A stretch of DNA of 64,000 nucleotides from Kiritimatiellia bacterium (GTDB lineage Bacteria; Verrucomicrobiota; Kiritimatiellia; RFP12; UBA1067). Where the stretch lies: positions 1,489-65,488 of the forward strand of contig JAZTWW010000046.1 of NCBI GenBank assembly GCA_045636065.1, read 5' to 3'. Made by a program: the position numbers and the translations under genes. Under the pieces are notes generated by a model, which had not been told where the DNA came from, did not search any database, and worked only from the letters and a program-made list of their open reading frames with translations. The stretch's first letter is position 1, and the number at the start of each line of letters is the position of its first letter. Positions 1,590 to 28,540 of the stretch are shown here, piece by piece.

Positions 1590-2597
1590 TCAAGATCGAC
1601 ATGCCAATTCCTCAATAGCATTCTTCAGCAACCACACACGCTCTTCAGGAGTGCCATCCCGATAACCCTTCAAGTAAATCAGCCTCCCACCATACCCTTT
1701 CCATATTTGCGATTCTGGCTGGTTATTGGGATTGGATATTGGCAACATTTCCACACTGTCACATTCCTCCGGCCCCCACGCCGGAGCGCCATCTGTGGTA
1801 ATGACTCGCTTGCCGCGTTCCAGGGCTTCGGCGATGACGAGGCCGAAGTTGTCGGATAGGGTCGGGAGTACAAGAACATCACACCATTCCCATACTTTCT
1901 CTAGTTCGTCGCCAAAGGCGTTGGAGATTATTTTCGCGCAGAGACGAGATGCGCCCGCGCCGCAAGGCGTCGGAATGGGTGAGCGAAGCGAACTGCGAAG
2001 CAGCCGCAAGGCCCCGCGAGGCGCAGAGGTTTCTTCAATCTGCCTAAGGGCAGCTTCGAAGCAGGAGAGACCTTTGAGGGGATGGCGGCGGCCGAGATAA
2101 AGCAAGTGGAGCTCCTTATTCTCTGCCTGCTCAAGCTCTACATGATCTACATGATTCAGATTAAAGAAGCGCTTGATGTCGGTGACTTCAACAGGCGGGC
2201 AATGCTTGCCTAGATACGACTGTATCCATCCCTTCTCTGCTTCGCAAGTCGCTACGAGAACCTTTGCCCGGCGAAGACAGAATCGCTCAATTGGGCCTAC
2301 AAGGGCTTTCTTCCAGCCATGGTAGCGAAGGCGGATCGGATCATAGCACGCTTCCGGCATCCAATGCACGTTACGGCCCCACAACGCCGCCCACCATAGG
2401 CATGGCAACCATCCGCAATGAATCCACACTTCATCAGCCGACCTCAGCTCGCGAACCTTCGCCCATGTCGTATATGAAACTTCGCATCCCTCGCGCTGCT
2501 GCTCGTCAATTATCATTCTGGCAATATTTGCCGCACCATTCCACGGCTGCCACCCAGCGCAGATGTGAAGGATATTCATTTGCCTATTTCGTCCCAT
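1590..2597 (-). CDS. glycosyltransferase family 4 (GT-B fold)
   Basis: C-terminal EX7E-type region VLVLPTLSDNFGLVIAEALERGKRVITTD. Contains an unusually GC-rich internal segment at ~1920-2040. Confidence 0.75.
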   Translation of the reverse strand: MGRNRQMNILHICAGWQPWNGAANIARMIIDEQQREGCEVSYTTWAKVRELRSADEVWIHCGWLPCLWWAALWGRNVHWMPEACYDPIRLRYHGWKKALVGPIERFCLRRAKVLVATCEAEKGWIQSYLGKHCPPVEVTDIKRFFNLNHVDHVELEQAENKELHLLYLGRRHPLKGLSCFEAALRQIEETSAPRGALRLLRSSLRSPIPTPCGAGASRLCAKIISNAFGDELEKVWEWCDVLVLPTLSDNFGLVIAEALERGKRVITTDGAPAWGPEECDSVEMLPISNPNNQPESQIWKGYGGRLIYLKGYRDGTPEERVWLLKNAIEELACRS

Positions 2598-3331
2598 CGC
2601 AGGCCACGATACCTGGCAGAATCAATCTTGCGCTTAAACCAGCTTCCGTCCAACATACTTGCCGCCCTTGTCACATTACGCCAAAAACCAGTGGACGCAA
2701 CATCATATTTCGCATTGACCCGCGCCCATTCCTCTAGCTGCGCACCACGATTCTCACCGCTACCCGTCTTAGAGCCGTCATGCGAACGGAAGCCCCAGGC
2801 ATAATCATTAAGACTAGCGAAGCGAACCCCCTCCTTTGCCCAACGAGTCCAGAGATCGATATCCATTACATACTTGAGATTAGCGTCGAATCCGCCAAGA
2901 CGCTCCCATAGGGTATGCCTGAAGAATGCACTTGGACCGCCAGTCCAGACACTCATCATGCACCCAAACCACGGCAGCCATTTCGCATCAGTCCTAACAT
3001 CCTTGATACGCCCATTCTCATCAAGATAGACAGTATCACCTGCGATCCATTCAATCCTGTCGGTCCTATTAATCCTGCCTAAAACTTTCTTAAGTGCCCC
3101 TGGTAGCAGCACATCATCTGCATTCAACCAGAATAACCACTCGCCCTTCGCCTCGGCAAAACCTTTGTTGAGCGCATCGCTCTGCCCCTCATCTGGCTTA
3201 ACGTCTCCATCTTGAACAATAATCTCAAGATCTTTGCCCAAGCCCTGGCTTTCAAGCGATGCTATCGCCTCATCAAAATAAGGACGCCGCCCCTTCACAG
3301 GGACAACGCAGCTGAAGAGAGGAGAAGACAA
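2576..3331 (-). CDS. glycosyltransferase family 2
   Basis: Motifs VVPVKGRRPYFDEAIASL, WLNADDVLLPGA and GGFD...YVMDIDLW. Paralogous to the gene at 17411-18247. Confidence 0.8.
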   Translation of the reverse strand: MSSPLFSCVVPVKGRRPYFDEAIASLESQGLGKDLEIIVQDGDVKPDEGQSDALNKGFAEAKGEWLFWLNADDVLLPGALKKVLGRINRTDRIEWIAGDTVYLDENGRIKDVRTDAKWLPWFGCMMSVWTGGPSAFFRHTLWERLGGFDANLKYVMDIDLWTRWAKEGVRFASLNDYAWGFRSHDGSKTGSGENRGAQLEEWARVNAKYDVASTGFWRNVTRAASMLDGSWFKRKIDSARYRGLRWDEIGK

Positions 3332-3403
3332 ACTCGTTATTAAATGAAATTATTGCCATTAAAGCAACAATTACTGCTTCAATGGCAACAGCTCACGCGC
3401 ATA

Positions 3404-3682
3404 TTAGCAATAATACCGTCTCTCACCAAAATATGAATCCCATTTTGCCAATATTTCATCGACTCTTGCTTCTATTATTCTCTCAATATTGGCAAGCACC
3501 CGCCTATTGATCCCAGAGTTGTTATTGGCAATAAGGCACTTCCCTGCAGATGTAATCCATATCTTTGTTGCATTGGCCACAGGAGCACCCTCTGCCACAT
3601 GCACATGGACTGGCTCCAGCGGAATGTTTTCATTGGACCAGAAATAAACCCAATATGGGCCCGCCTTAAAAACCTGAGGCAT
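3404..3682 (-). CDS. DUF4160 domain protein
   Basis: Small protein MPQVFKAGPYWVYFWSNE...VHVHVAEG typical of DUF4160. Likely start at the internal Met (ORF-track start 3706). Paired with a DUF2442 gene. Confidence 0.55.
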   Translation of the reverse strand: MPQVFKAGPYWVYFWSNENIPLEPVHVHVAEGAPVANATKIWITSAGKCLIANNNSGINRRVLANIERIIEARVDEILAKWDSYFGERRYYC

Positions 3683-3938
3683 TGTCGAATCCTCCAGTTT
3701 CGGCAAACTCCATAATCAAATGCGCAGTTGACTTGATGACTTTCTCGATCTTTGATACATCCGCTTTTGAAAATCCATTAATATCTTCCCACTGATACCC
3801 TGGCAACCAGCAGGTTGCATTGCAAAAACACAGCTTTTCATCAGGTCTCTCGGCAAAAACCTTGACGCGCCCATCCTGCTTTGTTTCAGAATGGACGATC
3901 TCCGTTCCATCATCGAGTGTGAGAAATGGATACATCAT
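3666..3938 (-). CDS. DUF2442 domain protein
   Basis: 90-aa protein immediately upstream of, and overlapping, the DUF4160 gene. This pair is recurrently co-encoded in many genomes. Confidence 0.55.
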   Translation of the reverse strand: MMYPFLTLDDGTEIVHSETKQDGRVKVFAERPDEKLCFCNATCWLPGYQWEDINGFSKADVSKIEKVIKSTAHLIMEFAETGGFDNASGF

Positions 3939-3993: not shown

Positions 3994-4845
3994 TCAAATA
4001 CACACTTTGCTCATACTTGCCAATTGTTCTTTGCGCTTGCGCAACCGGCCTATCTCTTTATCAACTAACCATCTATACCACAACCCTTGCCAAAAATGCC
4101 AAAGAAAGCCTGGGAGTCCATCAAGGAAGCCGAGCTTGAGGAAGTAGCGGATGCAGAAATAAGCAAAGGCCCGGAAGTAGGGCGGGAGTTTGTAATACTT
4201 AATCTTCTTCCGATCTGTGGCTGTAGGATTTGCGAGACGTTCTGGATTGTTGAAAAGTGAGACGGCATCCATTGCTTCGCGCTTGGCATAACCACGATGC
4301 TTATCTTGCCACCAATCAAACGAGTTTAGGTTGTCGTCGTAGAATACGCCGTTAAAATCAGCGCAACAACCCTCCGAAAGAAGGATATGTTCATCCATCG
4401 CCCTATCTTCGATGCGCCCGACTCCATACCGAAAAATACGTAAAAGACGAATGCCATTCGTGCCATGATGAATCTCACCGCCAAGGAACTTTCGCTTCAA
4501 TTCCAAAGTCAACCCTGAAATATCATCTGGCACCTTTGGTAGCCCATCCTTAAGCCTTTCAATTGTCTCTGGTGTAAGATACTCATCCGCATCTAGACGC
4601 AGCACCCACTTAGCCTCAATAGGAAGATTATCTAATGCCCAATTGAATTGCTTAGCATATAGTCCAGGCCATTTGTTAAATGCAGTAATCGCCCCCATCT
4701 CGAGAGCGATTTCATGAGTGCCGTCACTAGGCTGAGACTCCACGACAAATGTTTGCCGCGCCTCAAGCGGCTTCAATCGCTCAAGACAGCGCCGAATGTG
4801 AAGTTTTTCTTGCCCTACAAGTATTATTACAGCGATATCAGTCAT
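3994..4845 (-). CDS. glycosyltransferase family 2
   Basis: N-terminal IAVIILVGQEKLHIRRCLERL plus LRLDADEY (DxD) motif. Hydrophobic C-terminal tail FWQGLWYRWL. Confidence 0.75.
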   Translation of the reverse strand: MTDIAVIILVGQEKLHIRRCLERLKPLEARQTFVVESQPSDGTHEIALEMGAITAFNKWPGLYAKQFNWALDNLPIEAKWVLRLDADEYLTPETIERLKDGLPKVPDDISGLTLELKRKFLGGEIHHGTNGIRLLRIFRYGVGRIEDRAMDEHILLSEGCCADFNGVFYDDNLNSFDWWQDKHRGYAKREAMDAVSLFNNPERLANPTATDRKKIKYYKLPPYFRAFAYFCIRYFLKLGFLDGLPGFLWHFWQGLWYRWLVDKEIGRLRKRKEQLASMSKVCI

Positions 4846-4846: not shown

Positions 4847-5959
4847 TCAATTCAACGCGACATCACCCATACCTGGGCGAAGACGCCAGTTTGCTGGGTT
4901 ATTCATACCCTCTGGCTCCTTGAACGAACTATTGGGACGTACACGATAGCAAAAATTGGCATCACCAATATGCTGCCAACCGAGACGCCGCAGGAACTTC
5001 TGTACGAACAGCTCATATGCCGGGAACTCCACAGCATCCAGTTTTTTGCGGCGCTTCAGCGCCCAAAGGACAATTCTCCACAGCAAATTGTTTTCATATC
5101 CAGGCAAACAACCCCATTCAATAACCGAACCAAGCCACACATTCTTGAATCCGCGATGCGACGCCTGTTCATGAAAACGCTCTTTGACCATGAAGAAACC
5201 TATGGGCTTATCCCTTTTGTACATCAAATACGCCTTGGCCGGGTCATCTTTCGAAAAAGAATTATTTAACACCCACTTAAACCATCTCGCATCATGGATC
5301 TCGGAAAAACGTGCCTCATTAGCTTCTGTCATCTGGCCGAGGACAGACAATTGCGTGTTATCGCAAGTATCAACATTAACTACTTTGATGCCAGCAGCTT
5401 TAAATTTACCAATAAATGATACAATGTGCGAATAAATCCATATGCAACAATCAAGAATCGATGAGACTGGCTTTGCCAACCAATTCTTCACCTTCATCTC
5501 AACGACGGCTCTTGATTTAAGAAGCATGACAAACCGCGGATATTCAAAAACACAGCATCCGAGCAAACGATGTATCTTAACTGCGCGTTGAGACATCCCC
5601 ACACCAAAACCGACATCAAAGTCACCATCTCGACAATCCTCAAACATAGCTGATAACTCTACCCCCAAGCCACTTTTGCGCGCCCAAGGTTCCACACTCG
5701 TTGAACTGCCACCACCTGCCGAAACCTCAGCTCCATCACATTTTGCCAACAATGGGAACACATATTCACTACCCCCAACGCGTCCATTTACAATCCCAAC
5801 TTTTGCTATTACAACATTTTGATGCTGGCAGAATGGATTTGCCGACAATGCCTTGAGGATTCCTTCTGGGATGATAAAATGAGGAGTGCCTCCAACTACT
5901 CCATCGGAGGACACATCGGATAATTTTCTGAAAACAAGTGTAAAATCTTGCATAGGCAT
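4847..5959 (-). CDS. hypothetical protein, possibly FemAB/BioF2-like GNAT-fold acyl/aminoacyl transferase
   Basis: 370-aa ORF in the middle of the sugar-modification genes. No diagnostic motif recognised with certainty. Assignment from size, context and weak resemblance only. Confidence 0.3.
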   Translation of the reverse strand: MPMQDFTLVFRKLSDVSSDGVVGGTPHFIIPEGILKALSANPFCQHQNVVIAKVGIVNGRVGGSEYVFPLLAKCDGAEVSAGGGSSTSVEPWARKSGLGVELSAMFEDCRDGDFDVGFGVGMSQRAVKIHRLLGCCVFEYPRFVMLLKSRAVVEMKVKNWLAKPVSSILDCCIWIYSHIVSFIGKFKAAGIKVVNVDTCDNTQLSVLGQMTEANEARFSEIHDARWFKWVLNNSFSKDDPAKAYLMYKRDKPIGFFMVKERFHEQASHRGFKNVWLGSVIEWGCLPGYENNLLWRIVLWALKRRKKLDAVEFPAYELFVQKFLRRLGWQHIGDANFCYRVRPNSSFKEPEGMNNPANWRLRPGMGDVALN

Positions 5960-5965: not shown

Positions 5966-6721
5966 TCAGAGCATACCACCAGAGTCAACTATATACTTCT
6001 GCCCTGAAAGAAAATTCGCCTTGTCAGAAAGCAGAAATACTGCGAAGCTGGCGACATCTTCAACTCTGCCCCATCCGAATGGGTGTTGATCGTCAACAAC
6101 TTCTTTCGCGCCGTATTTGTCACTTTCGGCAGAAGTTGTCATTGGCGTCTTTATCATAGAAGGCAAAAGGCTGTTCATCCGAATACCTCGAAAGGCGACT
6201 TCTCGCGCCATCCCCTTGATCGTTGCGGAAAGCGCGGCTTTCGACCCGGCATAAAGCGTCTGACCCCTTGTCGACACAAATGCATCCAATGACGAAAGAT
6301 AGACAAACGATGCCCCTCTACCGACATTGTTCCGTCTGTCAAGAAGACCTTTTGTCATCATTACTGGCGCAAAGTAGTTTATGTCAAAGATTCGCTTTGC
6401 GTAGTCGTAGTCAAAGGCCTGAACAGGCGAAACCGCCGTTACCCCAGCCGAATATGCCATGCCGCTGAACTTGCCGTATTTTTCACGAAGTTCTTTCACG
6501 TAGTCTGGCAAAGCACCGATATCCTGCGCCAAGTCCTTTACTTCAAGACATATTGCTACTGGATCATGAGCCTTGTTCTTGAGCGCCTGAAGTCTCTCTT
6601 CGTTGCGACCCATCGCAATAACAGTAGCTCCAAGTTCGTTCAGAAGCAAAGCGATACCCTCACCGATGCCCGACGATGCGCCAGTGACGATATACTTCTG
6701 GTCTTTTGTAAACGAAATCAT
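5966..6721 (-). CDS. SDR-family oxidoreductase (3-oxoacyl-ACP reductase-like)
   Basis: TGASSGIG cofactor motif with catalytic YAGSK (Tyr-x3-Lys) context. Confidence 0.85.
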   Translation of the reverse strand: MISFTKDQKYIVTGASSGIGEGIALLLNELGATVIAMGRNEERLQALKNKAHDPVAICLEVKDLAQDIGALPDYVKELREKYGKFSGMAYSAGVTAVSPVQAFDYDYAKRIFDINYFAPVMMTKGLLDRRNNVGRGASFVYLSSLDAFVSTRGQTLYAGSKAALSATIKGMAREVAFRGIRMNSLLPSMIKTPMTTSAESDKYGAKEVVDDQHPFGWGRVEDVASFAVFLLSDKANFLSGQKYIVDSGGML

Positions 6722-6939
6722 TAGAGTCCCGCCTTGCCCATGATGTCACCAAGCGTCGAAAGCGAACGAAAATCTGCCAGCTTCATCTTGACGCCAAAGT
6801 GCTTGTCAAGAAACGCCATCGTCGCCATGATCGAAAGCGAATCCCACTCATCAAGATCCGCAAGGACGGTGTCTGCGGTCAGTTCCGTGTCCGTTTGAAG
6901 GACGTCCTGCATTTCAGTCAGGAATTCATCACGTGTCAT
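6721..6939 (-). CDS. acyl carrier protein
   Basis: MTRDEFLTEMQDVL...DEWDSLSIMATMAF with a DSL phosphopantetheine site. ORF-track N-terminal extension to 7062 rejected. Confidence 0.75.
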   Translation of the reverse strand: MTRDEFLTEMQDVLQTDTELTADTVLADLDEWDSLSIMATMAFLDKHFGVKMKLADFRSLSTLGDIMGKAGL

Positions 6940-6940
6940 T

Positions 6941-8083
6941 TTATTCTCCTTTGTAGTATTTGAGCCAATGCTCAATTTGTTCTTCCCTCGTAGGCCGATT
7001 GGCTGGAGGCCGATAAGTCGTAATCCCGCCATTATACATGCCGGAAAGATCCAATGCGGCACCTGCCCATGAAAGGCCGATACCGAATGTCGCCAACACA
7101 GTCTTGCCTATCGTCTTGCCCACCTGATCACACAAGACGGTTACAACAGAGTTAGTTGAATTGTTCGCGTATTTGGAGAATACGTCAATAGGCGTTTTAT
7201 CAAGAGGTATGCCTGCCTTGCCAACAATCATCTCAAGTATCTGCTTATTCGCCTGATGTACGGCAAAAAGAGAAACAGCGTCAGTTGTCCATTCAGCTGC
7301 AGCCATCGTATCCATGATAAGTTTTGGTGCGACTTCCATTGTAAACGCAAATACGTCCTCGCCCTTCATCATCGACTGATTCGGAGTCCAGATATTCCCT
7401 AACGCATCGGTTGCGGAGTACTTGAACGTATCCTTGTCATATGGCAAGCGCATACCTCCAAATGGCATAATGAGCTTGTCCCATCCTTTGCCATCGGTAC
7501 CCAACACAAACGCACTTCCCCAATCCTCCTCAGTTCTAACAAGAAAAGTAGCCGAGGCCGCGTCGCCAAAAACAGGAGCAGACTTTCTGTTGTCTTGAGT
7601 TATTGTATGTGTAGGCAAATCACCCGCCAGAACAAGGCAATTCCCGACCGCACCCGATTCTATCAGTGCATGAGCATTCCAAAGTGCATACACATATCCA
7701 GAACACCCCAGATTGACGCTAAAACAGGGAATATCCTGTGATAGCCCCAATCTACCATGTGCGATACAAGCATCCGCTGGAGCGACATAGTCTGGACTCT
7801 GATTCACAAAGACAAGCGACTCTATTTCTTCACCCTTTACAGATATTTCCGACAAGAGCTTTTCTGCGGCATCAACCGCCAAATCAGTGACTGTAGTCTG
7901 CGCATCAGCCAGATAACGCCGCCCATAGCCAATCATCTTCTTCTGACGATCCAGTTTCTTCTGGTTCCCGCCAAAATACTTCAACTCATCATCAACATCT
8001 ATGTAATGTTCTGGAAGTGATGTCTTCACTCCGAGAATCTTGACATGAGTAAACTTTGACTTGCTCATATGTATGCACCTCAC
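6941..8083 (-). CDS. 3-oxoacyl-ACP synthase III (FabH-like KAS III)
   Basis: FabH-like thiolase fold: NLGCSGYVYAL (active Cys), VHQANKQI and FGIGLSWAGA. Alternative GTG/ATG starts at 8083 or 8068. Confidence 0.85.
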   Translation of the reverse strand: MRCIHMSKSKFTHVKILGVKTSLPEHYIDVDDELKYFGGNQKKLDRQKKMIGYGRRYLADAQTTVTDLAVDAAEKLLSEISVKGEEIESLVFVNQSPDYVAPADACIAHGRLGLSQDIPCFSVNLGCSGYVYALWNAHALIESGAVGNCLVLAGDLPTHTITQDNRKSAPVFGDAASATFLVRTEEDWGSAFVLGTDGKGWDKLIMPFGGMRLPYDKDTFKYSATDALGNIWTPNQSMMKGEDVFAFTMEVAPKLIMDTMAAAEWTTDAVSLFAVHQANKQILEMIVGKAGIPLDKTPIDVFSKYANNSTNSVVTVLCDQVGKTIGKTVLATFGIGLSWAGAALDLSGMYNGGITTYRPPANRPTREEQIEHWLKYYKGE

Positions 8084-8829
8084 TTGAATGTCAAATCGCA
8101 GGATGCTCCACCATCAACCATGACTTGGCTGCCGGTAATCCACCTTGCGGCGTCGGAAAGCAGGAACGCGACCACTCCAGCGACATCCTGTGGCTTTCCT
8201 GTACCCATTGGATGCCTATGGTTCATTGCAGCAACTGCAATTGGATCATTGAAGATTTCATCCGCCATTTCTGTATGAACTGCTGCGGGGCACACGGTAT
8301 TGATTCTCACCTTCGGGGCCAGTTCCACGGCGGAAGCACGGGCATAGGAATTGAGAATTCCCTTGCTTGCACCATAAAGCGACTTCCCTCTCGTCGCCTG
8401 CATCGCTGCGATACTAGAAACAAAAACGATACTCTTCATACTGGCACCAGCAACCTTGCGCTTCATAAGGGAACCTGTAAGCAGAATTGCCGATGTCGCA
8501 TTTGTGTCCATTATGCGACGGTAACTGGCAAGATCTATAGTCTTGATAGCAGTTAAGTATACCATCCCGGCGCAATGGACAAACTTTGAGATGCAACATC
8601 TGCTCTCCGCAACAAACTTCTCAAAGTCTGCTTGAAGCGTATCAACGTTGGACAGGTCATACGTCCAAATAACATGGTTGCCTTTGCCGCAAAGCCGCAT
8701 AGTCTCTTCCAGTTTTTGCCTATTGCGTCCATGCAAAATCAAATTATCCGTCTTTGATAATTCCACTGCTATCGCCCGGCCAATGCCAGATGATGCACCT
8801 GTTACAAGTGTATATGTTAATTCTGACAT
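8080..8829 (-). CDS. SDR-family oxidoreductase
   Basis: TGASSGIGRAIA motif and YGASKG catalytic motif. Confidence 0.85.
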   Translation of the reverse strand: MSELTYTLVTGASSGIGRAIAVELSKTDNLILHGRNRQKLEETMRLCGKGNHVIWTYDLSNVDTLQADFEKFVAESRCCISKFVHCAGMVYLTAIKTIDLASYRRIMDTNATSAILLTGSLMKRKVAGASMKSIVFVSSIAAMQATRGKSLYGASKGILNSYARASAVELAPKVRINTVCPAAVHTEMADEIFNDPIAVAAMNHRHPMGTGKPQDVAGVVAFLLSDAARWITGSQVMVDGGASCDLTFK

Positions 8830-8831
8830 CG

Positions 8832-9059
8832 TTATTTTGTCCTGTTCTTCTCGAAGAACGCCCAGAGATCCGCGACAGTGGTAAGGCCCTTCACATCAGG
8901 GAAGGTCAACGTAAATCCGAATTTTGAGTCTGCCAATGCGACAATCGAAAGGACCGCCAGCGAATCCCATGAAGCATAATCGCGAAGATTGGCGCCGTCT
9001 TCCACGCTCGCCTCATCAAGAATATTGGCGAGTTCATCAAGGAATGCATGTTTGTCCAT
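8832..9059 (-). CDS. acyl carrier protein
   Basis: 75 aa with a SWDSLAVLSIV phosphopantetheine-attachment motif. Confidence 0.8.
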   Translation of the reverse strand: MDKHAFLDELANILDEASVEDGANLRDYASWDSLAVLSIVALADSKFGFTLTFPDVKGLTTVADLWAFFEKNRTK

Positions 9060-9061
9060 TG

Positions 9062-10141
9062 TTATTCTCCTTTGTTTAGGTAGTTTATTGTTTCACAGAA
9101 ATCAAAGTTACCACAGTTCATCACTATGCCACCATAAGTAAGCCCCACGCCAAAGCCCGAGAAACAGACCAATTTCATTTCGCGGCAAAGCGTCTCGGCA
9201 TCGTTGAGCGCCATAGCAGAAGGTATTGTCGCTCCACTGGAGTTGCCATAGTTCTCGACGACATTATTCGGCATCTTATCATAGGGAACATCAAGCTTCT
9301 CCGCCAGCTTTTGCAGCATGAACCTGTTTGGCTGGTGGAAGTAGTACTTGTCGATTCCGGTGAAGTCCGTTCCAGCGTCCTTGACTAGGTCGGAAAGCAT
9401 AGGCGGCACATCTGCCATCACGAAATTGAAGACTGCCGTACCGTCCATAACAAGATTGTCAGGTGCGCGTTCGTTTCCTTCCTCGTCCGCCGACATGATT
9501 GCGGTCTCTGGTGTCGAAGGCTGGCGGAAGCCACCGGCAGGGACCTTGAGCGCCATAGAACGCGTACCGTCAAAACGGACATCGGCCACGACATCTCCTG
9601 CACCAGAACGATTCTCGACAATCGTTATGGTAGCGGCGTCACCGATGAGCGGATAGCTGTTGCGATCCTTAGGCGAGACCTTGCGACTAAGCACATCTGC
9701 GTTTACGACCGCAACCTTGCTTATGCCCTGCTGCTCCAGCAATTGGAACGCCTGCAAAAGGCCAACAACGAAACCGCAGCATCCCTGCGCGATATCCGTG
9801 CAGAAGCAGTCACGGCGAAGCCCCAACTTGCCATGAAGGATGCATGACGTCGGCGGCATGAAGTGGTCAGGCGAAAGCGTCACATAGACAAGTGCGTCAA
9901 TCTCCTCTGGCTTGACATTGCCAACTTCGAACAGATGCCTGAAACCATATTCCGCAAGATCCGAAGCGCACACGCCGTCCCCCACAACACGGTGGGCATT
10001 GTAGCCCATGACCATCGCCAACTTGCGTGAACGGTTTTCAGGGGCGTTGAACAGCTTCATGTCGTCTACGAACAGGCGTTTCTGTTCGGGGACGACGACC
10101 ATCATGCCAGTTATGGCCTTATCCTTGAATTTGAACTTCAT
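9062..10141 (-). CDS. 3-oxoacyl-ACP synthase III (FabH-like KAS III)
   Basis: Motifs CTDIAQGCCGFVVGL, HQPNRFML and FSGFGVGLTYGG. Paralog of the gene at 6941-8083. Confidence 0.85.
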   Translation of the reverse strand: MKFKFKDKAITGMMVVVPEQKRLFVDDMKLFNAPENRSRKLAMVMGYNAHRVVGDGVCASDLAEYGFRHLFEVGNVKPEEIDALVYVTLSPDHFMPPTSCILHGKLGLRRDCFCTDIAQGCCGFVVGLLQAFQLLEQQGISKVAVVNADVLSRKVSPKDRNSYPLIGDAATITIVENRSGAGDVVADVRFDGTRSMALKVPAGGFRQPSTPETAIMSADEEGNERAPDNLVMDGTAVFNFVMADVPPMLSDLVKDAGTDFTGIDKYYFHQPNRFMLQKLAEKLDVPYDKMPNNVVENYGNSSGATIPSAMALNDAETLCREMKLVCFSGFGVGLTYGGIVMNCGNFDFCETINYLNKGE

Positions 10142-10368
10142 CTTTTCTTCGACCTCTGAACTAGTGCCTCTATTGATTCGACGTTGGCGAAGTTCTCCGG
10201 CAGTATGTCCGTGCCATCGATCTTTATTGAAAAGCGCTCGTCAAGCGTAGAGACAAGCGTCATAAGGTCAAAGGAATCGAGCATCCCCTCGTCGAAGAAG
10301 TTCTCGACCCCCTCGAACTCGAATTCGGGACGGATCTCCTTCAGGATCTCTACAATCTGCTTCTGCAT
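10138..10368 (-). CDS. acyl carrier protein (DltC-like)
   Basis: 76 aa with GMLDSFDLMTLVSTL (serine attachment motif). Confidence 0.7.
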   Translation of the reverse strand: MQKQIVEILKEIRPEFEFEGVENFFDEGMLDSFDLMTLVSTLDERFSIKIDGTDILPENFANVESIEALVQRSKKR

Positions 10369-11210
10369 TACGCATTTACCTTTCCGTTGTTTTGCCCATA
10401 GGCAAATACCGTATCTTTCAGTTCCTCAAATTCAAAGCCGTAGTGCCTATAGCGCTTGATGGCATTTTCGTTGTCGGCCTTAACCCAGAAATACTGACGC
10501 TTGGTGTTCGCTCCTGCAGCAAACATCGAGCGCATCAACCGACCTCCAACTCCATTGCCGCGAGCGCCAGGCGAAACAAACCAATACCGCAGGTATAGCG
10601 CAGCGGGTGAAAGGTCGAAGATGACGAAACCTTCTATGTCATTTGCCGCTCCACTACGTGCGACAAGAATCGACTGCGCCGCAATCCAATCCTGGACTTC
10701 TGCCAGGCAGGGTATCTGCTCCTCCTCCGCAATGAAGTTACCGGTCAAAAGCCGGTGTATTGCGGGGGCATCGGACTGCTTTGCGACTTCTATTCCCATT
10801 TCTGCGCAATACCTGATGCCTGGCGTCCGCCGCGACATGCGCTGTAGTACTGTAAGGTGAGCAAAACCCATGTTTTTGAACACCCTCTCCATTGGCTCAC
10901 GCAAGGCGTTGCGCCCTAGGACATCCACCACCATCCGAACCGAACCATTAACCGAGATAAGCGACGATACATCTTTTGCCAGTGATTCGACATCTGCCGA
11001 CAGGAAATAGATGCTGCTGAAGCCTTCCTGACGGCGCATCAGGAATGTAGACCCGCCTAGTTCTACATAAGAGAACGTTCCGCTTTCGCACCACCTTGTC
11101 ATGCGTTTCTCGTCAGGGAAGAAGTTGGACACCATCCGTCCCTTGTCGCGTGACTCAGCCACGCAACTGGCAACCTCTTCCCATGTGCGGAAATTTGTCA
11201 TGTCAGCCAT
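10368..11210 (-). CDS. GNAT-family N-acyltransferase
   Basis: C-terminal GNAT core RYWFVSPGARGNGVGGRLM...GFEF. Confidence 0.6.
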   Translation of the reverse strand: MADMTNFRTWEEVASCVAESRDKGRMVSNFFPDEKRMTRWCESGTFSYVELGGSTFLMRRQEGFSSIYFLSADVESLAKDVSSLISVNGSVRMVVDVLGRNALREPMERVFKNMGFAHLTVLQRMSRRTPGIRYCAEMGIEVAKQSDAPAIHRLLTGNFIAEEEQIPCLAEVQDWIAAQSILVARSGAANDIEGFVIFDLSPAALYLRYWFVSPGARGNGVGGRLMRSMFAAGANTKRQYFWVKADNENAIKRYRHYGFEFEELKDTVFAYGQNNGKVNA

Positions 11211-12732
11211 TAACCTGCCTATTCAGCAACGCGCGGTCGATCTTGCCAGTACCGCCACGAGGCAGCTCGGCAAGGCGACGGAAATCCGATGGAATCATGT
11301 ACTTCGGAAGTATCTGCCCTATTGCCTTGCGGAACTCCGCAGGGGTAATCTCGCGCTCACACTCGTAGAAGAACACTATAACCTTCTCCGCCTTGTTGTA
11401 CACGATGCAGCCATTCGGCACAAGCTTGAGCGTATTGATGATTACATGCTCTATCTCTCCCAGTTCTATCCGGTAGCCGGAGTGCTTTATGAGCGTATCC
11501 TTGCGTCCCTTGAACATGATCTCGCCGCGCTCGTTGCGTGAAACGATGTCACCGGTTCGATATATGATTTCTGGATAGGCCGTGTTAAGCGGATTCTGCG
11601 TGAACGCCGCCGCCGTCTTCTCCGGATTGTTATAATAGCCCATGGCCAGCGAAGTGCCGCGTACGCAAAGCTCGCCCTCTTCATCACACTGCGCGGGCCT
11701 GTCCTCGGAATTGAGAATAAGGATATCCGAATTGCGGCAGGGGAATCCGATTGGCAGTGGCTCATCGTCCCGGAAGTCGCGCGTAACCTCAAACCATGTG
11801 CAGTCGAGTGTGATTTCGATTGGCCCATATAGGTTGACAAACCGCGCCCACGGGAGATTGCGCTTCCAGACATTGAACTGCTTTGTCGGGAACACCTCCC
11901 CGGCGAACCACACCATCTTAAGGTCTGGAAGAGGCATCTTCTCAAGAAGCCCCATGTTCGCCATGTTGACCATGATCGTTGGCACCCAGAATATCCAAGA
12001 CACCCTCTCCTTCTTAAGAAGTTCAAGTATCTTGACCGGGAACATCGCCCAGCTGTCCGGAATGAGAACCATTGTCGCCCGCTTAGCGACCAAGAGGCAC
12101 AGTTCAAAACTGTATATGTCGAAAATGACTGGGGAAAGAGAGCCAACGACAAGTCCATCCTCCAACTGCCATGTCTCAAACGCGCACTCCATGAAATCGA
12201 AGAAGCTGCGATGGTTCAAGACTACACACTTGGGTGTCCCTGTAGAACCAGAGGTATTGATGAGGCAAAGCGGGTCGGTATCTATACCCTGTTCTATGAT
12301 TGCATTCAAGCGCCCGTCTGCACCATCCTGCAACTCTAGCCTGTCGAGGTCTTCCGTAAGGACAACAGGCACATCGCCAGCAATAGGCTCGATGATGCCA
12401 CGATACCTGGCGTTCGTGATGATTGCCAGTGGCTGCGCCTGCTTCAGCACATTAGCAAGACGCTCCGGCGGCGTCTTGACATCCATGTTCATGTATGCGT
12501 TCCCGGAATGGATGATGGCAAGGTCGGCCACAATTGTATGGATGCACTTTGGCAGAAACACCGCTACCGGGCGCCGTGTCGTCTTATATGTAGACGCGAG
12601 CCAATCGGCTATCTTGGACTCGGAAGCCCGGACCGCCAAAAATGTGGTGCTTTGGTCTCCATCCCTGACAGCTATAGCGTCAGGGTGTGCCTCTACCGTC
12701 GCAATAAAATCCTGTATGAGATTCGTTCTCAT
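11203..12732 (-). CDS. AMP-dependent synthetase/ligase (DltA-like adenylation enzyme, acyl-ACP ligase candidate)
   Basis: Adenylation motifs TSGSTGTPKCV (A3), YGPIE (A5), YRTGD (A7) and GRKDTLIKHSGYRIELGEIE (A8/A10). Stand-alone A domain next to ACPs. Confidence 0.85.
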   Translation of the reverse strand: MRTNLIQDFIATVEAHPDAIAVRDGDQSTTFLAVRASESKIADWLASTYKTTRRPVAVFLPKCIHTIVADLAIIHSGNAYMNMDVKTPPERLANVLKQAQPLAIITNARYRGIIEPIAGDVPVVLTEDLDRLELQDGADGRLNAIIEQGIDTDPLCLINTSGSTGTPKCVVLNHRSFFDFMECAFETWQLEDGLVVGSLSPVIFDIYSFELCLLVAKRATMVLIPDSWAMFPVKILELLKKERVSWIFWVPTIMVNMANMGLLEKMPLPDLKMVWFAGEVFPTKQFNVWKRNLPWARFVNLYGPIEITLDCTWFEVTRDFRDDEPLPIGFPCRNSDILILNSEDRPAQCDEEGELCVRGTSLAMGYYNNPEKTAAAFTQNPLNTAYPEIIYRTGDIVSRNERGEIMFKGRKDTLIKHSGYRIELGEIEHVIINTLKLVPNGCIVYNKAEKVIVFFYECEREITPAEFRKAIGQILPKYMIPSDFRRLAELPRGGTGKIDRALLNRQVNG

Positions 12733-13541
12733 TGATTCTCCACGTAGTTGAGTTTATTAAAGTTCGCCAATTCAATATCTTGCAGTTCGCATCTTTCCCT
12801 GCAAACAGAAAAACACTCTTCCGTGTCAATTCTACGCCACGGCTCGTCAACTCCAGGGTGGACACCTATTTCCGTCACGCCGTCAGGCAATGAATCGACG
12901 GCCTTTGAGAACCATTCCGGATCGCTGGTATGTCCAGCATTCATAAGGAAATGATCTGTCGTCTTGAATCCTGCCTTGTCAATGCGGTTCTGCATTGGCC
13001 CATTTATGACGCGCGACAAAAGACCCAACTTCCCTCCTACAACAGCCAAATCCTGGCACCGCCTGACCTTTGTGAACCCCAACTCTTCCTTCAACGCTGC
13101 CAAAGCTTTGAGGCTTTGAGGGAGCCTGTGGTTATGCCCATGTCCGTCTACATGAGAAATTGGAACCCCTGCATTCTTTAGCGCAAGATATTGCGCGCGC
13201 ATCTCTCGCTTGAGGTCTTCAACCTTTATCAACCCGGCAAAATTCCTCACAATGAACTTACGCGTCTGCCAAAGCCGTCCAGTAGACGGGTCGATCATAC
13301 TCGGTATCTCTTCCGGCCTGCACATCGGTATTTCATCGACCAGATAGAAATGCACCCCGAATGAAAACTGCTGGTGGGATTTGGCATATTCAACCGCCTT
13401 TGCAACAGCTGGCATTCCTGCCATGAGTGTTGCACTCGTTATGGCGCCACACTCAAATCCCCTAATCGTCCACTCAACTGTGTGATCACTCAGTCCAAAG
13501 TCATCTGCGTTTATAATTAACCGTCTCATAGACAGACTCAA
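12729..13541 (-). CDS. YdjC/ChbG-family carbohydrate deacetylase
   Basis: Hallmark N-terminus LIINADDFGLS and HxDGH region HVDGHGHNH. Confidence 0.8.
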   Translation of the reverse strand: MSLSMRRLIINADDFGLSDHTVEWTIRGFECGAITSATLMAGMPAVAKAVEYAKSHQQFSFGVHFYLVDEIPMCRPEEIPSMIDPSTGRLWQTRKFIVRNFAGLIKVEDLKREMRAQYLALKNAGVPISHVDGHGHNHRLPQSLKALAALKEELGFTKVRRCQDLAVVGGKLGLLSRVINGPMQNRIDKAGFKTTDHFLMNAGHTSDPEWFSKAVDSLPDGVTEIGVHPGVDEPWRRIDTEECFSVCRERCELQDIELANFNKLNYVENQ

Positions 13542-14284
13542 TCCATCGCAATCGCTTCTTCTTCCGTAAGCCTATGGGCAAAATATGGAGACTCTACATG
13601 CGGTATCATATCTGACCTGAAATTAGGATCATACTTTCGCCAAGGTCCATATTCATCATCAAGAATGGCCTCAGCATTTTCAGGGATGTCGACAGTGACA
13701 CCATGAACAACCATTTCTTTTATGCCCGTCGGCGCAGAAAATTGAAACTCCAATGCAGAATTGTCTCGCGGTGTTGGATAGTTGCGACCCTTAAACCAGC
13801 GCAAGTACCGAACTGTGAGCTTCTTTTGCGTATCATCCAGATACTCGCTCTGAAATACATCCATTGACAAATCAACCTTAGGGTCCATCACCGTAAACTC
13901 CAACATCCGCCCCTGAAACTTATAGGCATATACAAAACGATATCCTTCAGATAGAAATCCTCTTAGAGCATTGGCAAGCGAGCCGTATTCTGGCAAAACA
14001 GAGAAATCAAAATCGGCATCCCCTTTTATAAAACCACCATCACGAACAAAACCAAGCAACGTCCCCGCATCGCAATAATATGGTATGCGATGCTTCATGA
14101 ACACGGAATGTGCTCTCGCAAGGATATCATATCCGTGTTCACTCATCAGCTTCCTTGCCTTAGGCAGCCGATAACTTAGCCAAATCGGCTTGAGGATCTT
14201 AATGTACACTTTTTCCCCAAGCCACGTCTTCTTGAGGATATTTTTCAACAAGTCGTTGATTTGAAGTACAATTGGTTTCTTCAT
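13538..14284 (-). CDS. LicD-family phosphotransferase (phospho-alcohol transferase)
   Basis: LicD motif YYCDAGTLLGFVRDGGFIKGDADFDF. Confidence 0.8.
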   Translation of the reverse strand: MKKPIVLQINDLLKNILKKTWLGEKVYIKILKPIWLSYRLPKARKLMSEHGYDILARAHSVFMKHRIPYYCDAGTLLGFVRDGGFIKGDADFDFSVLPEYGSLANALRGFLSEGYRFVYAYKFQGRMLEFTVMDPKVDLSMDVFQSEYLDDTQKKLTVRYLRWFKGRNYPTPRDNSALEFQFSAPTGIKEMVVHGVTVDIPENAEAILDDEYGPWRKYDPNFRSDMIPHVESPYFAHRLTEEEAIAMD

Positions 14285-14286
14285 AG

Positions 14287-14718
14287 TTAAAGGTCTTTAA
14301 TTATTGCTTTCAAAACCGTAGTGGAAATCCCTTCCGTTCGTGGCAGGGTCACGACTTCCTTGCCATTCTCTCCACACCACATGAACAACTTCTGAAACCT
14401 CTCGTTCGTATGTTCAGGACCGACAACAAGAATGTCAAAGTCAACATCCTTAACTGCATCGACACCGACAACATCGTACGGTATCGCCTTATCAACAGTC
14501 CGCAGAGTTTCGATCATCTTCTGCCGCGTCGAGAAGTCATACACCCTCTTGCAGCCCTTCTTGTATTTCTCAATCATCTCATCTACCTGAAGCATCACAT
14601 AGATCTTGCCGCTCTCGCCGACGAGCTCTCTGATTCTCCTGAACAGCTCAAAATGCCCAAAGTGGAGCAAGTCAAAGACACCAAATGTAATGGCCGTCTT
14701 GCCATTGTAGTTACTCAT
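14287..14718 (-). CDS. cytidylyltransferase, TagD-like (CDP-alcohol-forming)
   Basis: 143 aa with an FGVFDLLHFGHF (HxGH) nucleotidyltransferase motif. Size matches glycerol-3-phosphate cytidylyltransferase. Confidence 0.8.
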   Translation of the reverse strand: MSNYNGKTAITFGVFDLLHFGHFELFRRIRELVGESGKIYVMLQVDEMIEKYKKGCKRVYDFSTRQKMIETLRTVDKAIPYDVVGVDAVKDVDFDILVVGPEHTNERFQKLFMWCGENGKEVVTLPRTEGISTTVLKAIIKDL

Positions 14719-15323
14719 TTATGCATTGCCTCCGTTATTGCATCATACAGCTCGTCATACTCCTCCAGTGCCACAACATCAGGATTCTCGGCTCTTATCT
14801 TCTCCGGAGCACGGAAGAGGAACCCCGCCTTTGACGCACGAATCATCTCAAGATCGTTGTAACCATCACCTGCGGCAATCGTCTCAACGCCCATACAAGA
14901 CTGCAATCCCCTTACCGTGTCGCGCTTGGTATGCGCCGAGCGGAGACTATACCCAATCATGTAACCATCGGCATCAACTTCCACGTCATTGTGAAATAGC
15001 GTTGGCCAACCCAACTTACGCATCAATGGACGACCAAAGATATCGAACGTATCGGAGACAACCACAACCTGACAAACCTCACGAAGCCGTGCGATAAACT
15101 CCCTTGCACCGTCGAACGGTTCGATAGTGTTGATTACCTCGACCACCTTATCGATTGTGAATCCGTATTTCCTCATAAGGTCAATGCGATAATGCATCAA
15201 CTTGTCGAAATCAGGCTCATCGCGTGTGGTACGCTTGAAATCTGGGATGCCCACTTTGTCGGCAAACGCAATCCAATTTTCAGGCGTCAATACCCCTTCC
15301 ATATCAAGACACACTATTGTCAT
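14715..15323 (-). CDS. HAD-family phosphoserine phosphatase / homoserine phosphotransferase (ThrH-like)
   Basis: MTIVCLDMEGVLTPENWIAFA...VVVSDTF...AAGDGYND resembles Pseudomonas ThrH (MEIACLDLEGVLVPEIWIAFA...). Comparison from memory. Confidence 0.7.
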   Translation of the reverse strand: MTIVCLDMEGVLTPENWIAFADKVGIPDFKRTTRDEPDFDKLMHYRIDLMRKYGFTIDKVVEVINTIEPFDGAREFIARLREVCQVVVVSDTFDIFGRPLMRKLGWPTLFHNDVEVDADGYMIGYSLRSAHTKRDTVRGLQSCMGVETIAAGDGYNDLEMIRASKAGFLFRAPEKIRAENPDVVALEEYDELYDAITEAMHK

Positions 15324-23151: not shown

Positions 23152-23167
23152 GTTAAGGTTCTTTCAA

Positions 23168-24031: not shown

Positions 24032-24037
24032 CTTCTC

Positions 24038-25390: not shown

Positions 25391-25533
25391 TCTTTCTACT
25401 CCTTTCAAACTCTAATTCGTAATGTTTAGCACCGCCAACACCCAGCAATATACGAGCAATCCTCATATGAGCGCATACAAACTCCGCCCATATGTGGCAA
25501 CAATGTTCAGAAATATGCGACGATTAGGGGACA

Positions 25534-28289: not shown

Positions 28290-28540
28290 CTGAAGTTCTC
28301 TCTCGGTTCATTGGCTACGCAGGCGATAAAGGATAAGGCCATTGGTTCAAGGGTGCGCAAGGATTTGGCAGTATCTATCACTTCTGGAAGGCCGTATGTC
28401 TTGAATGCAAAGCGCAAGTCGTCAACCGTGCCCCTTTCGAGGACACGCTGGACGACGTACTTCCTGTGCTTCGCCAAATCCAAATCATTGGGATCGGCAT
28501 CCCAAAACAGGTTCGGCGAAAATGTAGATGTGTTGGACAT
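28244..28540 (-). CDS. putative cognate antitoxin (DUF6922/AbiEi-like small protein)
   Basis: MSNTSTFSPNLFWDADPNDLDLAKHRKYVVQRVLERG... overlaps the toxin start by ~46 nt. Preceded by the conserved promoter motif. ORF-track start 28657 rejected. Confidence 0.5.
   Translation of the reverse strand: MSNTSTFSPNLFWDADPNDLDLAKHRKYVVQRVLERGTVDDLRFAFKTYGLPEVIDTAKSLRTLEPMALSFIACVANEPRENFRCYTQKQSSPAPWIY

Follow-up and report, generated by a model that had tools for sequence, protein, structure and literature searches.

Nine co-oriented genes in a Kiritimatiellia glycan locus, together with the two that bracket them, probably form one operon-encoded pathway (we put this at roughly 55%) for a short, amino-acid-containing acyl group that would be amide-linked to a hexosamine of the polysaccharide. 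The best reading is of a free-standing hybrid NRPS/type-II-FAS line yielding an amino-acid-containing beta-hydroxyacyl group that N-acylates the hexosamine; what we infer in this scheme is the amino acid, the KAS_A primer, the donor that each GNAT uses and the acceptor sugar.

Locus organization

The window is the whole 64,000-nucleotide stretch of DNA that was analysed. A sequence-only reading had placed an acyl-chain module at 5966–12732, with a ligase, three ACPs, two KAS III enzymes, two SDRs and a GNAT. A Pfam search bears out all nine, each domain lying on the minus strand (as do all features below) and scoring above its gathering threshold (20.8 bits for PF00550, used for the ACP calls). 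These boundaries hold for the nine genes but not for the functional unit, which is wider, taking in the YdjC and G370 genes on either side. Neighbouring genes overlap or stand only 1–12 nt apart, so that they form a single operon whose nine module genes are translationally coupled; the ligase and YdjC genes overlap by 4 nt, the LicD, YdjC and GT2 genes share the operon through the same coupling, and a strong terminator (440–409) marks its end. Two starts lie inside the ORFs as first scanned: ACP_C begins at ATG 6939 (scanned as 6721–7062) and KAS_B most likely at ATG 8068, with an AGGTG ribosome-binding site (scanned as 6941–8083).

The flanking locus encodes GT2 and GT4 glycosyltransferases, Wzy, a MATE-like flippase, LicD and cytidylyltransferases. 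Most related loci examined likewise place the module among glycosyltransferase, flippase and amino-sugar genes, in keeping with the earlier view that it serves a glycan and is not an independent lipid cluster. One locus (L005) has only a MurG-like GT28 near the cassette and no large glycan locus, so the acceptor could be a glycolipid in some organisms. Profile searches of the locus ORFs found no dehydratase or enoyl reductase, as previously read. The window holds no aminotransferase and neither FabD nor a phosphopantetheinyl transferase; for the latter two, housekeeping enzymes must be assumed.

A predicted amino-acid adenylation enzyme and its carrier

The stand-alone ligase (11203–12732; 509 aa; PF00501, 191.7 bits) carries the adenylating-enzyme motifs TSGSTGTPK, YGPxE, YRTGD and GKIDR, which we confirmed in translation. 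Its best NCBIfam models are TIGR01733 (290.9 bits) and the DltA subfamily (246.7 bits), with 229 bits on the DltA equivalog against a cut-off of 560, and its top PDB matches are the NRPS A domains of LgrA, TycA and GrsA, plus DltA. The 10-residue pocket code reads DIFFWALLDK, including Asp235 and Lys517; a GrsA control returned the expected DAWTIAAICK. The code is near-invariant in 16 homologues (44–89% identity) and conserved across phyla, Asp235 being retained in 17 of 17 ligase sequences. It is unlike the DltA code (DLMTMCTVAK) and, to our knowledge, unlike any established specificity code. The TIGR01733 and A-domain matches, Asp235/Lys517 and the pocket code exclude a fatty-acid ligase; judged by sequence, the protein is an amino-acid adenylation enzyme of the NRPS/DltA type. 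The chain made by the module therefore very probably includes an amino acid, and not acetate units alone.

The presumed partner of this enzyme is ACP_A (10138–10368; 76 aa; PF00550, 29.6 bits), a DltC-like carrier with weak NCBIfam matches to AmcB and DltC, an LDSFD serine motif and 79–95% identity across related loci. We propose that the adenylation enzyme loads a small amino acid onto it. DltA/DltC and other stand-alone A-domain and carrier pairs similarly place a ~500-aa enzyme near a ~76-aa carrier, but here a GNAT gene stands between the two, DltB and DltD are absent, and the carrier is wired to a KAS III.

That intervening gene encodes GNAT280 (10368–11210; 280 aa; PF00583, 37.6 bits), a tandem-GNAT protein whose domain is closest by sequence to the N-alpha-acetyltransferases Ard1, Naa50 and RimI and closest in fold to MshD. 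In the mycothiol pathway, MshD acetylates an aminoacyl alpha-amine. GNAT280 may act on or with aminoacyl-ACP_A, whether by N-acetylation or N-acylation of the aminoacyl group or by aminoacyl transfer.

Condensing enzymes and ketoreductases

Both FabH-type condensing enzymes, KAS_A (9062–10141; 359 aa) and KAS_B (6941–8068; 375 aa), match PF08545 and PF08541 and keep the Cys-His-Asn triad, also intact in 15 KAS_A orthologues. KAS_A is 86–94% identical in the closest loci, and KAS_B orthologues (67–91% identity) come after SDR_A in four of them (L003, L024, L041 and L044). The remaining carriers, ACP_B (8832–9059; 75 aa; PF00550, 23.6 bits) and ACP_C (6721–6939; 72 aa; PF00550, 25.7 bits), bear the serine motifs WDSLA and WDSLS. 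ACP_B, presumed to carry the malonyl extender and the beta-ketoacyl product, always forms a two-gene block with an SDR, before or after the ligase-to-KAS block. The two classical ketoreductases, SDR_A (8080–8829; 249 aa) and SDR_B (5966–6721; 251 aa), match adh_short_C2, adh_short and KR and retain both TGxxxGxG (TGASSGIG in each) and YxxxK (YGASK and YAGSK, respectively). The nearest NCBIfam models of SDR_A are FabG-like, all below equivalog cut-offs; SDR_B and ACP_C are 91% and 92% identical to their L041 counterparts. Two KAS III enzymes and ketoreductases with no dehydratase would fit a short beta-hydroxyacyl product.

A deacetylase and a second GNAT-fold protein bracket the module

Upstream lies a YdjC-family carbohydrate de-N-acetylase (12729–13541; PF04794, 160 bits) with NADDFG and HVDGHGH motifs; among NCBIfam models it comes closest to HpnK (131 bits, under the cut-off) and to chitin disaccharide deacetylase. 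Downstream, G370 (4847–5959; 370 aa) has no Pfam or NCBIfam match and a predicted tandem-GNAT fold of the NMT/Eis type. L005 and L027 have YdjC orthologues (75–82% identity) alongside this module, and the YdjC and G370 pair also occurs in L023 (YdjC, G370, KAS, ACP, unknown, ACP, SDR), in L029 (hexapeptide acyltransferase, YdjC, KAS, ACP, KAS, SDR, G370, GT2) and, on its own, in L028; the pair thus recurs with or without the ligase and GNAT genes. It is the likelier agent of a step that frees an amine and then N-acylates it: the deacetylase is the more likely source of the acceptor amine, and we propose that YdjC frees the amine of a HexNAc residue and that G370 is the terminal N-acyltransferase partnering it. 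The adjacent GT2 glycosyltransferase (3994–4845; PF00535) shares 72–75% nucleotide and 66–77% protein identity with GT2s of L023, L027 and L029, which lie downstream of the G370 sets and share a gene cluster with them (directly adjacent in L029 only). Travelling with the pair, it may install the HexNAc due for re-acylation.

Recurrence of the cassette

Our survey took in 35 loci, redundancy removed, each flanked by 5 kb or more of sequence; they come from Bacteroidota, from Verrucomicrobiota and from metagenome contigs without an assigned source. The ligase gene sits immediately upstream of the GNAT gene in all 35, with an ACP immediately downstream in 32; within 5 kb there is a KAS III in 35 and a reductase in 34. 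Ligase-GNAT-ACP_A-KAS_A is the predominant order, excepting L011 and L012 (ACP-KAS before the ligase) and loci of the Phocaeicola vulgatus type, a divergent version with the same logic in which an aldo/keto reductase replaces the SDR. L041 has all nine genes in identical order, followed by a G370 homologue. The notion that sugar loci seldom carry such a gene set is accordingly not upheld. In near-identical cassettes such as that of L041, the GNAT-fold proteins are 48–54% identical and the chain-building proteins 80–96%, and the low conservation of the former fits acceptor-facing enzymes.

The terminal step varies among these loci: 27 have DegT with a hexapeptide acyltransferase, three have YdjC with G370, and none has both. 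Five YdjC-containing loci (L023, L027, L028, L029 and L037) also have a hexapeptide acyltransferase beside YdjC, which could there be the N-acyltransferase instead of G370. GNAT280, inseparable from the ligase/ACP pair, is found whichever terminal class a locus has, so it is not clearly the enzyme that passes the finished chain to the sugar. The sequence-only reading had given it that ACP-to-sugar role, which is weakened by separate candidate terminal transferases in 30 of the 35 loci.

Proposed pathway and alternatives

In the proposed pathway, the adenylation enzyme would load a small amino acid onto ACP_A; KAS_A, ACP_B and SDR_A would add and reduce one malonate-derived C2 unit, and KAS_B, ACP_C and SDR_B a second. 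YdjC would remove the N-acetyl group from a HexNAc residue, and the NMT-like G370 would pass the completed acyl chain from the ACP that carries it to the freed amine. Two wirings are conceivable, both tentative. GNAT280 might N-acetylate aminoacyl-ACP_A, protecting the amine, with KAS_A priming on the acetylated aminoacyl group to give a 4-acetamido-3-hydroxyacyl chain, or a 6-acetamido-3,5-dihydroxyacyl chain after two rounds. The clustering of ligase, GNAT, ACP_A and KAS_A in most loci, with ACP_B-SDR mobile as a separate block, speaks for this, as do the relatives of GNAT280 by sequence and fold; we know of no glycan with such a product. The KAS/SDR sets might instead turn acetyl-CoA into 3-hydroxybutanoyl or 3,5-dihydroxyhexanoyl, and the two GNAT-fold enzymes could then form a pair of amide bonds, so that an N-(hydroxyacyl)-aminoacyl sugar results. 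The divergence of both GNAT-fold proteins favours this possible route, whose product class is represented in E. coli O123 and Salmonella O58 by Qui4N bearing N-[(S)-3-hydroxybutanoyl]-D-alanyl (named in a reference title of PMC7685785).

Two independent decorations could also be encoded, with ligase, ACP_A and GNAT280 providing an (N-acetyl)aminoacyl group and KAS/ACP/SDR with G370 a hydroxyacyl group, on separate amines with no covalent link. The two GNAT-fold transferases and separate carriers suit such a division, L029 has a KAS/ACP/SDR/G370 set without the ligase genes, and sugars bearing N-acetyl-aminoacyl groups, as well as sugars bearing 3-hydroxybutanoyl groups, are on record (in part from reference titles in PMC7685785). 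We consider it unlikely, as the constant company of KAS III (35/35) and, in 34/35, a reductase around the ligase/GNAT/ACP trio holds even with non-orthologous partners (for example, the aldo/keto reductase of L017), which is not expected of independent functions.

Quite unlikely is the original proposal, in which a simple carboxylic acid starter passes through two condensation-reduction rounds to a poly-beta-hydroxyacyl-ACP and GNAT280 transfers the chain to an amino sugar. Its short beta-hydroxyacyl product is supported by the KAS III/ketoreductase content and by the wfpC–wfpG precedent (below), but not as an acetate-only chain, given a ligase of amino-acid adenylation type with Asp235 in every sequence. 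Against it, too, are the separate terminal candidates that accompany GNAT280 and the plain KAS/ACP/SDR sets, lacking GNAT280, that YdjC and G370 bracket; the known vio and wfp modules for plain 3-hydroxyacyl groups work without a ligase. Very improbable is a product other than a glycan substituent, namely a small molecule, free or attached to a lipid (an N-acyl amino acid, an aminolipid or a compound resembling a tetramate), with the glycan island as mere location: the cassettes of L005 and L022 do lie amid housekeeping genes with only GT28 and a tRNA-synthetase-like gene nearby, and an unprotected 4-amino-3-oxoacyl thioester could on chemical grounds cyclise off its carrier, but the module here is coupled in one operon to LicD, YdjC and GT2, profile searches of the locus found neither thioesterase nor lipid acyltransferase, and DegT/hexapeptide or YdjC/G370 genes plus glycosyltransferases occur in 30 of 35 well-flanked loci.

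Comparison with known systems

The Pseudomonas syringae viosamine island (vioS, acp, vioR, vioB) makes N-3-hydroxybutanoyl viosamine, as mass spectrometry of mutants indicates, and a vioR mutant lacks the modified sugar (PMC3927599). The island (vioA, vioS, vioB, vioR, acp), which has a homologous counterpart within the P. aeruginosa PAK flagellin glycosylation island, likewise sets a KAS III, a dedicated ACP and a 3-oxoacyl-ACP reductase in a glycan locus. Unlike the present module, it has one of each, no adenylation enzyme, GNAT or deacetylase, an amine supplied by an aminotransferase, and transfer by the hexapeptide-type VioB. In Flavobacterium psychrophilum, a 3,5-dihydroxyhexanoyl amide on Qui2NAc4N is ascribed to wfpC–wfpG, which resemble our module in combining two ketoacyl-ACP synthases with an ACP and a ketoreductase for two rounds without dehydration (PMC6519341). 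That function was assigned by homology alone, and the system differs in lacking an adenylation enzyme and GNAT, in its PglD-like transferase, and in an acceptor that arises through PglE/PglF-type enzymes and not through deacetylation.

The GNAT SbzI depends on a carrier protein (PMC11685415). SbzI/SbzG (altemicidin) differ from the proteins here in that SbzI has a single GNAT domain and serves a secondary-metabolite pathway, while a carrier donor for GNAT280 or G370 is putative. The Vibrio cholerae O1 rfbK–rfbO genes, raised earlier as a possible parallel, pair an ACP with an adenylate-forming enzyme for amino-sugar N-acylation within an O-antigen locus; as the sequence-only reading itself stated, that perosamine pathway has no KAS III. 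LpxC/LpxD, NodB/NodA (with NodF/NodE), HpnK and MshB/MshC/MshD follow a deacetylate-then-reacylate logic in which a de-N-acetylated GlcNAc derivative receives an acyl or aminoacyl group on its amine, from acyl-ACP for LpxD and NodA. YdjC is nearest HpnK and GNAT280 nearest MshD in fold, but most of these deacetylases and transferases belong to families unrelated to ours, and the donor here would be a dedicated, amino-acid-containing short chain.

KAS III/ACP/ketoreductase modules for sugar N-hydroxyacylation were thus already known; the present cassette is a widespread, uncharacterised one within a polysaccharide locus. Its enzymes seem to work on carrier proteins, coupling an amino acid with one or two short hydroxy-acid units, the product most likely being hung on a sugar stripped of its acetyl group, so that the outcome is probably an unusual side chain on a surface sugar polymer.

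The module and its genomic setting

Nine genes on the reverse strand at 5966–12732 encode an AMP-binding enzyme (the loader, or ligase; 11203–12732, 509 aa), the tandem-GNAT protein GNAT280 (10368–11210, 280 aa), the carrier ACP_A (10138–10368, 76 aa), the KAS III enzyme KAS_A (9062–10141, 359 aa), a second carrier ACP_B (8832–9059, 75 aa), the ketoreductase SDR_A (8080–8829, 249 aa), a second KAS III, KAS_B (6941–8068, 375 aa), a third carrier ACP_C (6721–6939, 72 aa) and a second ketoreductase, SDR_B (5966–6721, 251 aa); these products fit the families named in an earlier sequence-only reading. Neighbouring genes overlap by 1–8 nt or are separated by 12 nt or less, the KAS_B start codon is preceded by an AGGTG ribosome-binding site, and the operon continues past the module through three glycosyltransferase (GT) genes, with a strong terminator at 440–409. 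The extent originally assigned to the module leaves out two neighbouring genes with which the proposed pathway is complete, one for a YdjC protein directly upstream (12729–13541) and one for a 370-aa tandem-GNAT protein, G370, directly downstream (4847–5959). No dehydratase or enoyl reductase was found among the locus ORFs scanned.

The module lies inside a 30-kb island of 43–50% G+C (62% in the surrounding genome), which also encodes GT2 and GT4 transferases, Wzy, a MATE-like flippase, a TupA-type ATP-grasp enzyme, three LicD proteins and two cytidylyltransferases. An Rfam search of the window gave a tRNA as its sole match. One group of island genes (13538–15323, reverse strand) comprises a ThrH-type HAD protein (248 bits, cut-off 133, for NF010109, phosphoserine phosphatase/homoserine phosphotransferase), a small cytidylyltransferase and a LicD, and resembles a route that would supply a CDP-activated phospho-(homo)serine-type substituent; the equivalent position in a related locus, L027, holds a LicD, a class-V aminotransferase and a cytidylyltransferase. 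A second CDP-type set (22444–25408, reverse strand) consists of a 456-aa fusion of cytidylyltransferase and GFO/IDH/MocA oxidoreductase with two further LicD genes. At 2576–3938 (reverse strand), a DUF4160 gene (3404–3706) and an overlapping 90-aa ORF are flanked by two GT2 genes; in the one at 2576–3331 the best PF00535 stretch spans only profile positions 64–112 of 168, and this gene may be truncated or disrupted.

Between the island and the 62% G+C core, several mobile or defence-type genes (27672–32338, reverse strand) encode an AbiEii toxin with a DUF6922 partner, a PD-(D/E)XK nuclease and a protein with NYN and OST-HTH domains, consistent with horizontal acquisition of the glycan island. 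The core flank carries, on the same strand, a 728-aa three-domain fusion of HemC, uroporphyrinogen methylase and HemD (32338–34524) and a NAGLU-family alpha-N-acetylglucosaminidase (40597–42360).

The loader is an NRPS-type adenylation enzyme

The loader matches PF00501 (191.7 bits, cut-off 29.9) and has core motifs A3, A5, A7, A8 and A10 (TSGSTGTPK, YGPIE, YRTGD, GYRIELGEIE and GKIDR). Its top NCBIfam model is the amino-acid adenylation domain TIGR01733, at 290.9 bits just under the cut-off of 317.4; both DltA models also fall below theirs (TIGR01734, 229 bits against 559.85; NF003417, 246.7 against 476). A search of solved structures placed NRPS A domains (LgrA, TycA and GrsA) best, with DltA and beta-aminoacyl-ACP synthetases next. 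Alignment to a GrsA fragment, with GrsA itself as a control that gave the canonical DAWTIAAICK, reads the specificity-conferring residues of the loader as DIFFWALLDK. The two residues that hold an amino-acid substrate by its amino group and its carboxylate, Asp235 and Lys517 in GrsA numbering, are kept here and in 16 homologues. By these comparisons we assign the loader as an NRPS-type amino-acid adenylation enzyme; on the kind of loader, the sequence-only reading is wrong.

Of the 16 homologues, 44–89% identical and from different phyla, 14 share the code or nearly so (DI[FYL]FWALLDK); more divergent codes are DIYFWAFLDK (L006) and DNLFFALVDK (L011/L017). Phe, Phe and Trp line the predicted pocket, suggesting a substrate with a small side chain, and the code matches no specificity code known to us. 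Position 301 is Ala, where the D-Ala pocket of DltA has Cys, and the DltA code as a whole differs from that of the loader. ACP_A is itself weakly DltC-like by NCBIfam.

Chain-building enzymes

Both KAS III enzymes match PF08545 and PF08541, and their Cys-His-Asn residues align with those of E. coli FabH, as do those of 20 relatives. KAS_A and KAS_B score 236.6 and 190.1 bits against NF009519 (cut-off 436) and 175.5 and 170.4 bits against NF006829 (cut-off 249), and we classify them as FabH-like paralogues, not fabH itself. Trp32, a CoA-binding residue of FabH compared along with Arg151, is absent from all the glycan-locus KAS III examined. The three carriers exceed the PF00550 cut-off of 20.8 bits (29.6, 23.6 and 25.7 bits), each with a phosphopantetheine serine in a DS[LF] motif (LDSFD, WDSLA and WDSLS). 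SDR_A and SDR_B combine adh_short and KR domains with classical TGxxxGxG and YxxxK motifs; because both fall below the FabG equivalog cut-offs (113–126 bits against 222–332), we infer their substrate, a 3-oxoacyl-ACP, from context.

GNAT280 and the terminal step

GNAT280 has a GNAT fold with an R/Q-x-x-G-x-G/A motif and is predicted as a tandem GNAT (pLDDT 87). The best structural matches of the model are mycothiol synthase MshD, glucosamine N-acetyltransferase and the TDP-fucosamine acetyltransferase WecD, with the carrier-protein-dependent SbzI ranked lower; in sequence, its GNAT domain resembles N-alpha-acetyltransferases. Residues 29–41, in the N-terminal pseudo-GNAT half, form an invariant NFFxDxxRM...WC motif that includes an invariant Cys41, for which a covalent intermediate and carrier-protein docking are both possibilities. 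A tblastn search with GNAT280 against a plasmid collection returned no match. The apparent fusion of GNAT280 in a 496-aa protein (P0308) is probably a gene-calling artefact, its N-terminal part having no significant domain.

The YdjC protein belongs to the YdjC family of carbohydrate deacetylases (PF04794, 160 bits, cut-off 29.7); its closest models are HpnK, which deacetylates hopanoid GlcNAc (131.4 bits, cut-off 232.6), and the chitobiose deacetylase ChbG (85.7 bits, cut-off 227). G370 has no Pfam or NCBIfam match; its predicted structure is again a tandem GNAT (pLDDT 89.9), closest to N-myristoyltransferases (NMTs) and Eis-like enzymes and matching FemX as well.

Across 35 non-redundant related loci, 27 carry a DegT aminotransferase, a PglD-like hexapeptide acyltransferase or both, three carry YdjC with G370, five have neither class and none has both. 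We read these as two alternative routes to the acceptor amine and the terminal N-acyltransferase, the first of which, transamination with a hexapeptide enzyme, is that of the characterized vio and pgl systems, and the second de-N-acetylation by YdjC together with G370. Profile and Pfam searches over the opening 32 kb of the window gave no DegT or hexapeptide match; we read the window, from gene content, as taking the YdjC/G370 route. Outside the 35-locus set, YdjC and G370 bracket KAS/ACP/SDR sets that have no ligase or GNAT280 (L029 and L023) or stand as a bare pair (L028). As a caveat to this division, a hexapeptide gene also lies beside YdjC in five YdjC-containing loci (L023, L027, L028, L029 and L037). 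A homologue of the window GT2 at 3994–4845 is found downstream of the YdjC/G370 sets in L023, L027 and L029, directly adjoining only in L029. In L027, CD-NTase (CBASS-like) and Cap15-like effector genes (9140–10627) lie directly downstream of the G370 homologue, within the glycan locus.

The cassette is recurrent

The GNAT280 family has 219 matches in a 90%-clustered database and 251 clusters (50% identity, E ≤ 1e-30) among 1.84 billion representatives; scans of metagenome contigs yielded 215 relatives and those of genome contigs 17 loci, with carriers among Bacteroidales, Odoribacter, Phocaeicola vulgatus, Flavobacterium, Verrucomicrobia and one Acutalibacteraceae genome. Using profiles built from the window and the first matches, we annotated the 17 genome loci, 80 metagenome loci and a dozen from exact-protein look-ups, and took counts over the 35 non-redundant loci flanked on each side by 5 kb or more. 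The adenylation gene lies immediately upstream of GNAT280 in all 35 and an ACP immediately downstream in 32; within 5 kb there is a KAS III in 35/35, a reductase in 34/35 and a second ACP in 31/35, and ten loci hold a second KAS III. The ligase–GNAT–ACP_A–KAS_A block stays intact in most loci, with the ACP_B–SDR pair on either side of it; in L011/L012 an ACP–KAS pair lies upstream of the ligase instead. A divergent version in Phocaeicola vulgatus (ACP, KAS, ligase, GNAT, ACP, aldo/keto reductase) is the same logic with non-orthologous parts, and in L041 all nine genes and G370 follow the order of the window, the chain-building proteins being 82–96% identical. These counts, the P. vulgatus version and L041 show that the arrangement, which had been thought uncommon, is recurrent, and that the ligase trio is linked in function with the enzymes that condense and reduce.

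In the metagenomic locus L003 (1–20807), a flippase gene is surrounded by genes for five KAS III, no fewer than five ACPs, four SDRs and two adenylation enzymes, so several acyl-building sets can share one glycan locus. In Verrucomicrobia bacterium UBA3783 (L005/L022), the YdjC-to-G370 cassette (L005 4121–14249) sits outside any large glycan locus, preceded by a 442-aa protein of unknown function, a MurG-like GT28 and a 285-aa class-II tRNA-synthetase-like protein, suggesting that the acceptor there may be a glycolipid or small glycoconjugate. Proteins encoded in the flanks of the window do not match those of L022. At the nucleotide level, blastn of window genes and two low-G+C homologues against all complete E. 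coli genomes identified no homologous cassette.

Proposed pathway

At the sequence level the inventory shows an enzyme that activates amino acids, three carriers, intact decarboxylating condensing enzymes and ketoreductases (two of each), a sugar deacetylase and two proteins with an N-acyltransferase fold. In our best overall explanation (probability about 0.55), an amino acid would be loaded on ACP_A, one or two malonate units would be added and reduced, and the product would be amide-linked to a hexosamine freed by YdjC. The outline of an acyl module serving a glycan survives from the sequence-only reading, while its loader and its rarity do not; its choice of GNAT280 for the final hand-over is probably also wrong. 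A CurA-type malonyl decarboxylase/loading role for GNAT280 was dropped, as it would leave the adenylation enzyme without a role.

Two wirings of the amino acid fit the data. Tentatively, the cassette may be a miniature hybrid NRPS/type-II FAS line for glycan decoration, in which GNAT280 would acetylate the alpha-amine of aminoacyl-ACP_A, blocking lactamisation of the later 4-amino-3-oxoacyl thioester; KAS_A would extend this primer onto ACP_B to give a 4-acetamido-3-hydroxyacyl (gamma-acetamido-beta-hydroxy, or statine-like) chain, a KAS_B round would yield the 3,5-dihydroxy C+4 homologue, and the NMT-like tandem GNAT would install the group on the de-N-acetylated hexosamine. The ligase–GNAT–ACP_A–KAS_A block, intact in most loci, argues for this order, as does the likeness of GNAT280 to N-alpha-acetyltransferases in sequence and to MshD in fold; KAS III extension of adenylate-loaded ACP primers has a precedent in pactamycin biosynthesis. 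We know of no glycan bearing a statine-like acyl group. If this wiring is true, GNAT280 and G370 both act on carrier-protein-tethered substrates, which are presented as atypical for GNATs, mostly users of acyl-CoA (PMC11685415).

In the other wiring, also tentative, the KAS/SDR sets would turn acetyl-CoA into 3-hydroxybutanoyl or 3,5-dihydroxyhexanoyl, as proposed for vio and wfp, and the two GNAT-fold enzymes would make two amide bonds to give an N-(hydroxyacyl)-aminoacyl sugar. GNAT280 and G370 are each only 48–54% identical between cassettes whose other proteins are 80–96% identical, as expected of acceptor-facing enzymes, and products of this class are known from E. coli O123 and Salmonella O58, according to a title cited in PMC7685785.

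Relation to known systems and implications

With KAS III, ACP and ketoreductase in a glycan locus, the cassette is like the vio/wfp sugar N-hydroxyacylation modules, which have the same kind of core in the viosamine island of P. syringae and among the wfp genes of F. psychrophilum; formation of a beta-hydroxyacyl amide on sugar by these three proteins is already established and not new. Unlike those modules, the opening 32 kb of the window has no counterpart of their aminotransferase (VioA/PglE) or hexapeptide N-acyltransferase (VioB/PglD). A full-text literature search found no paper describing the cassette, and none among the papers returned with an obligatory NRPS-type adenylation enzyme plus its own carrier and a tandem GNAT, with a YdjC and NMT-like GNAT terminal step, or with a second elongation set; by these three features the cassette differs from the known modules of its kind.

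Recognition of surface polysaccharides by antibodies, phages and host lectins is largely decided by non-sugar substituents. Working out the cassette would add a predicted substituent class to sequence-based prediction of glycan structure, explain what a 370-aa family does for which the Pfam and NCBIfam collections searched have no model, and test whether carrier-protein donors are in common use by GNAT-fold enzymes. Should the statine-like product prove correct, the system would be a common one among Bacteroidales of the gut and rumen, Phocaeicola vulgatus among them.
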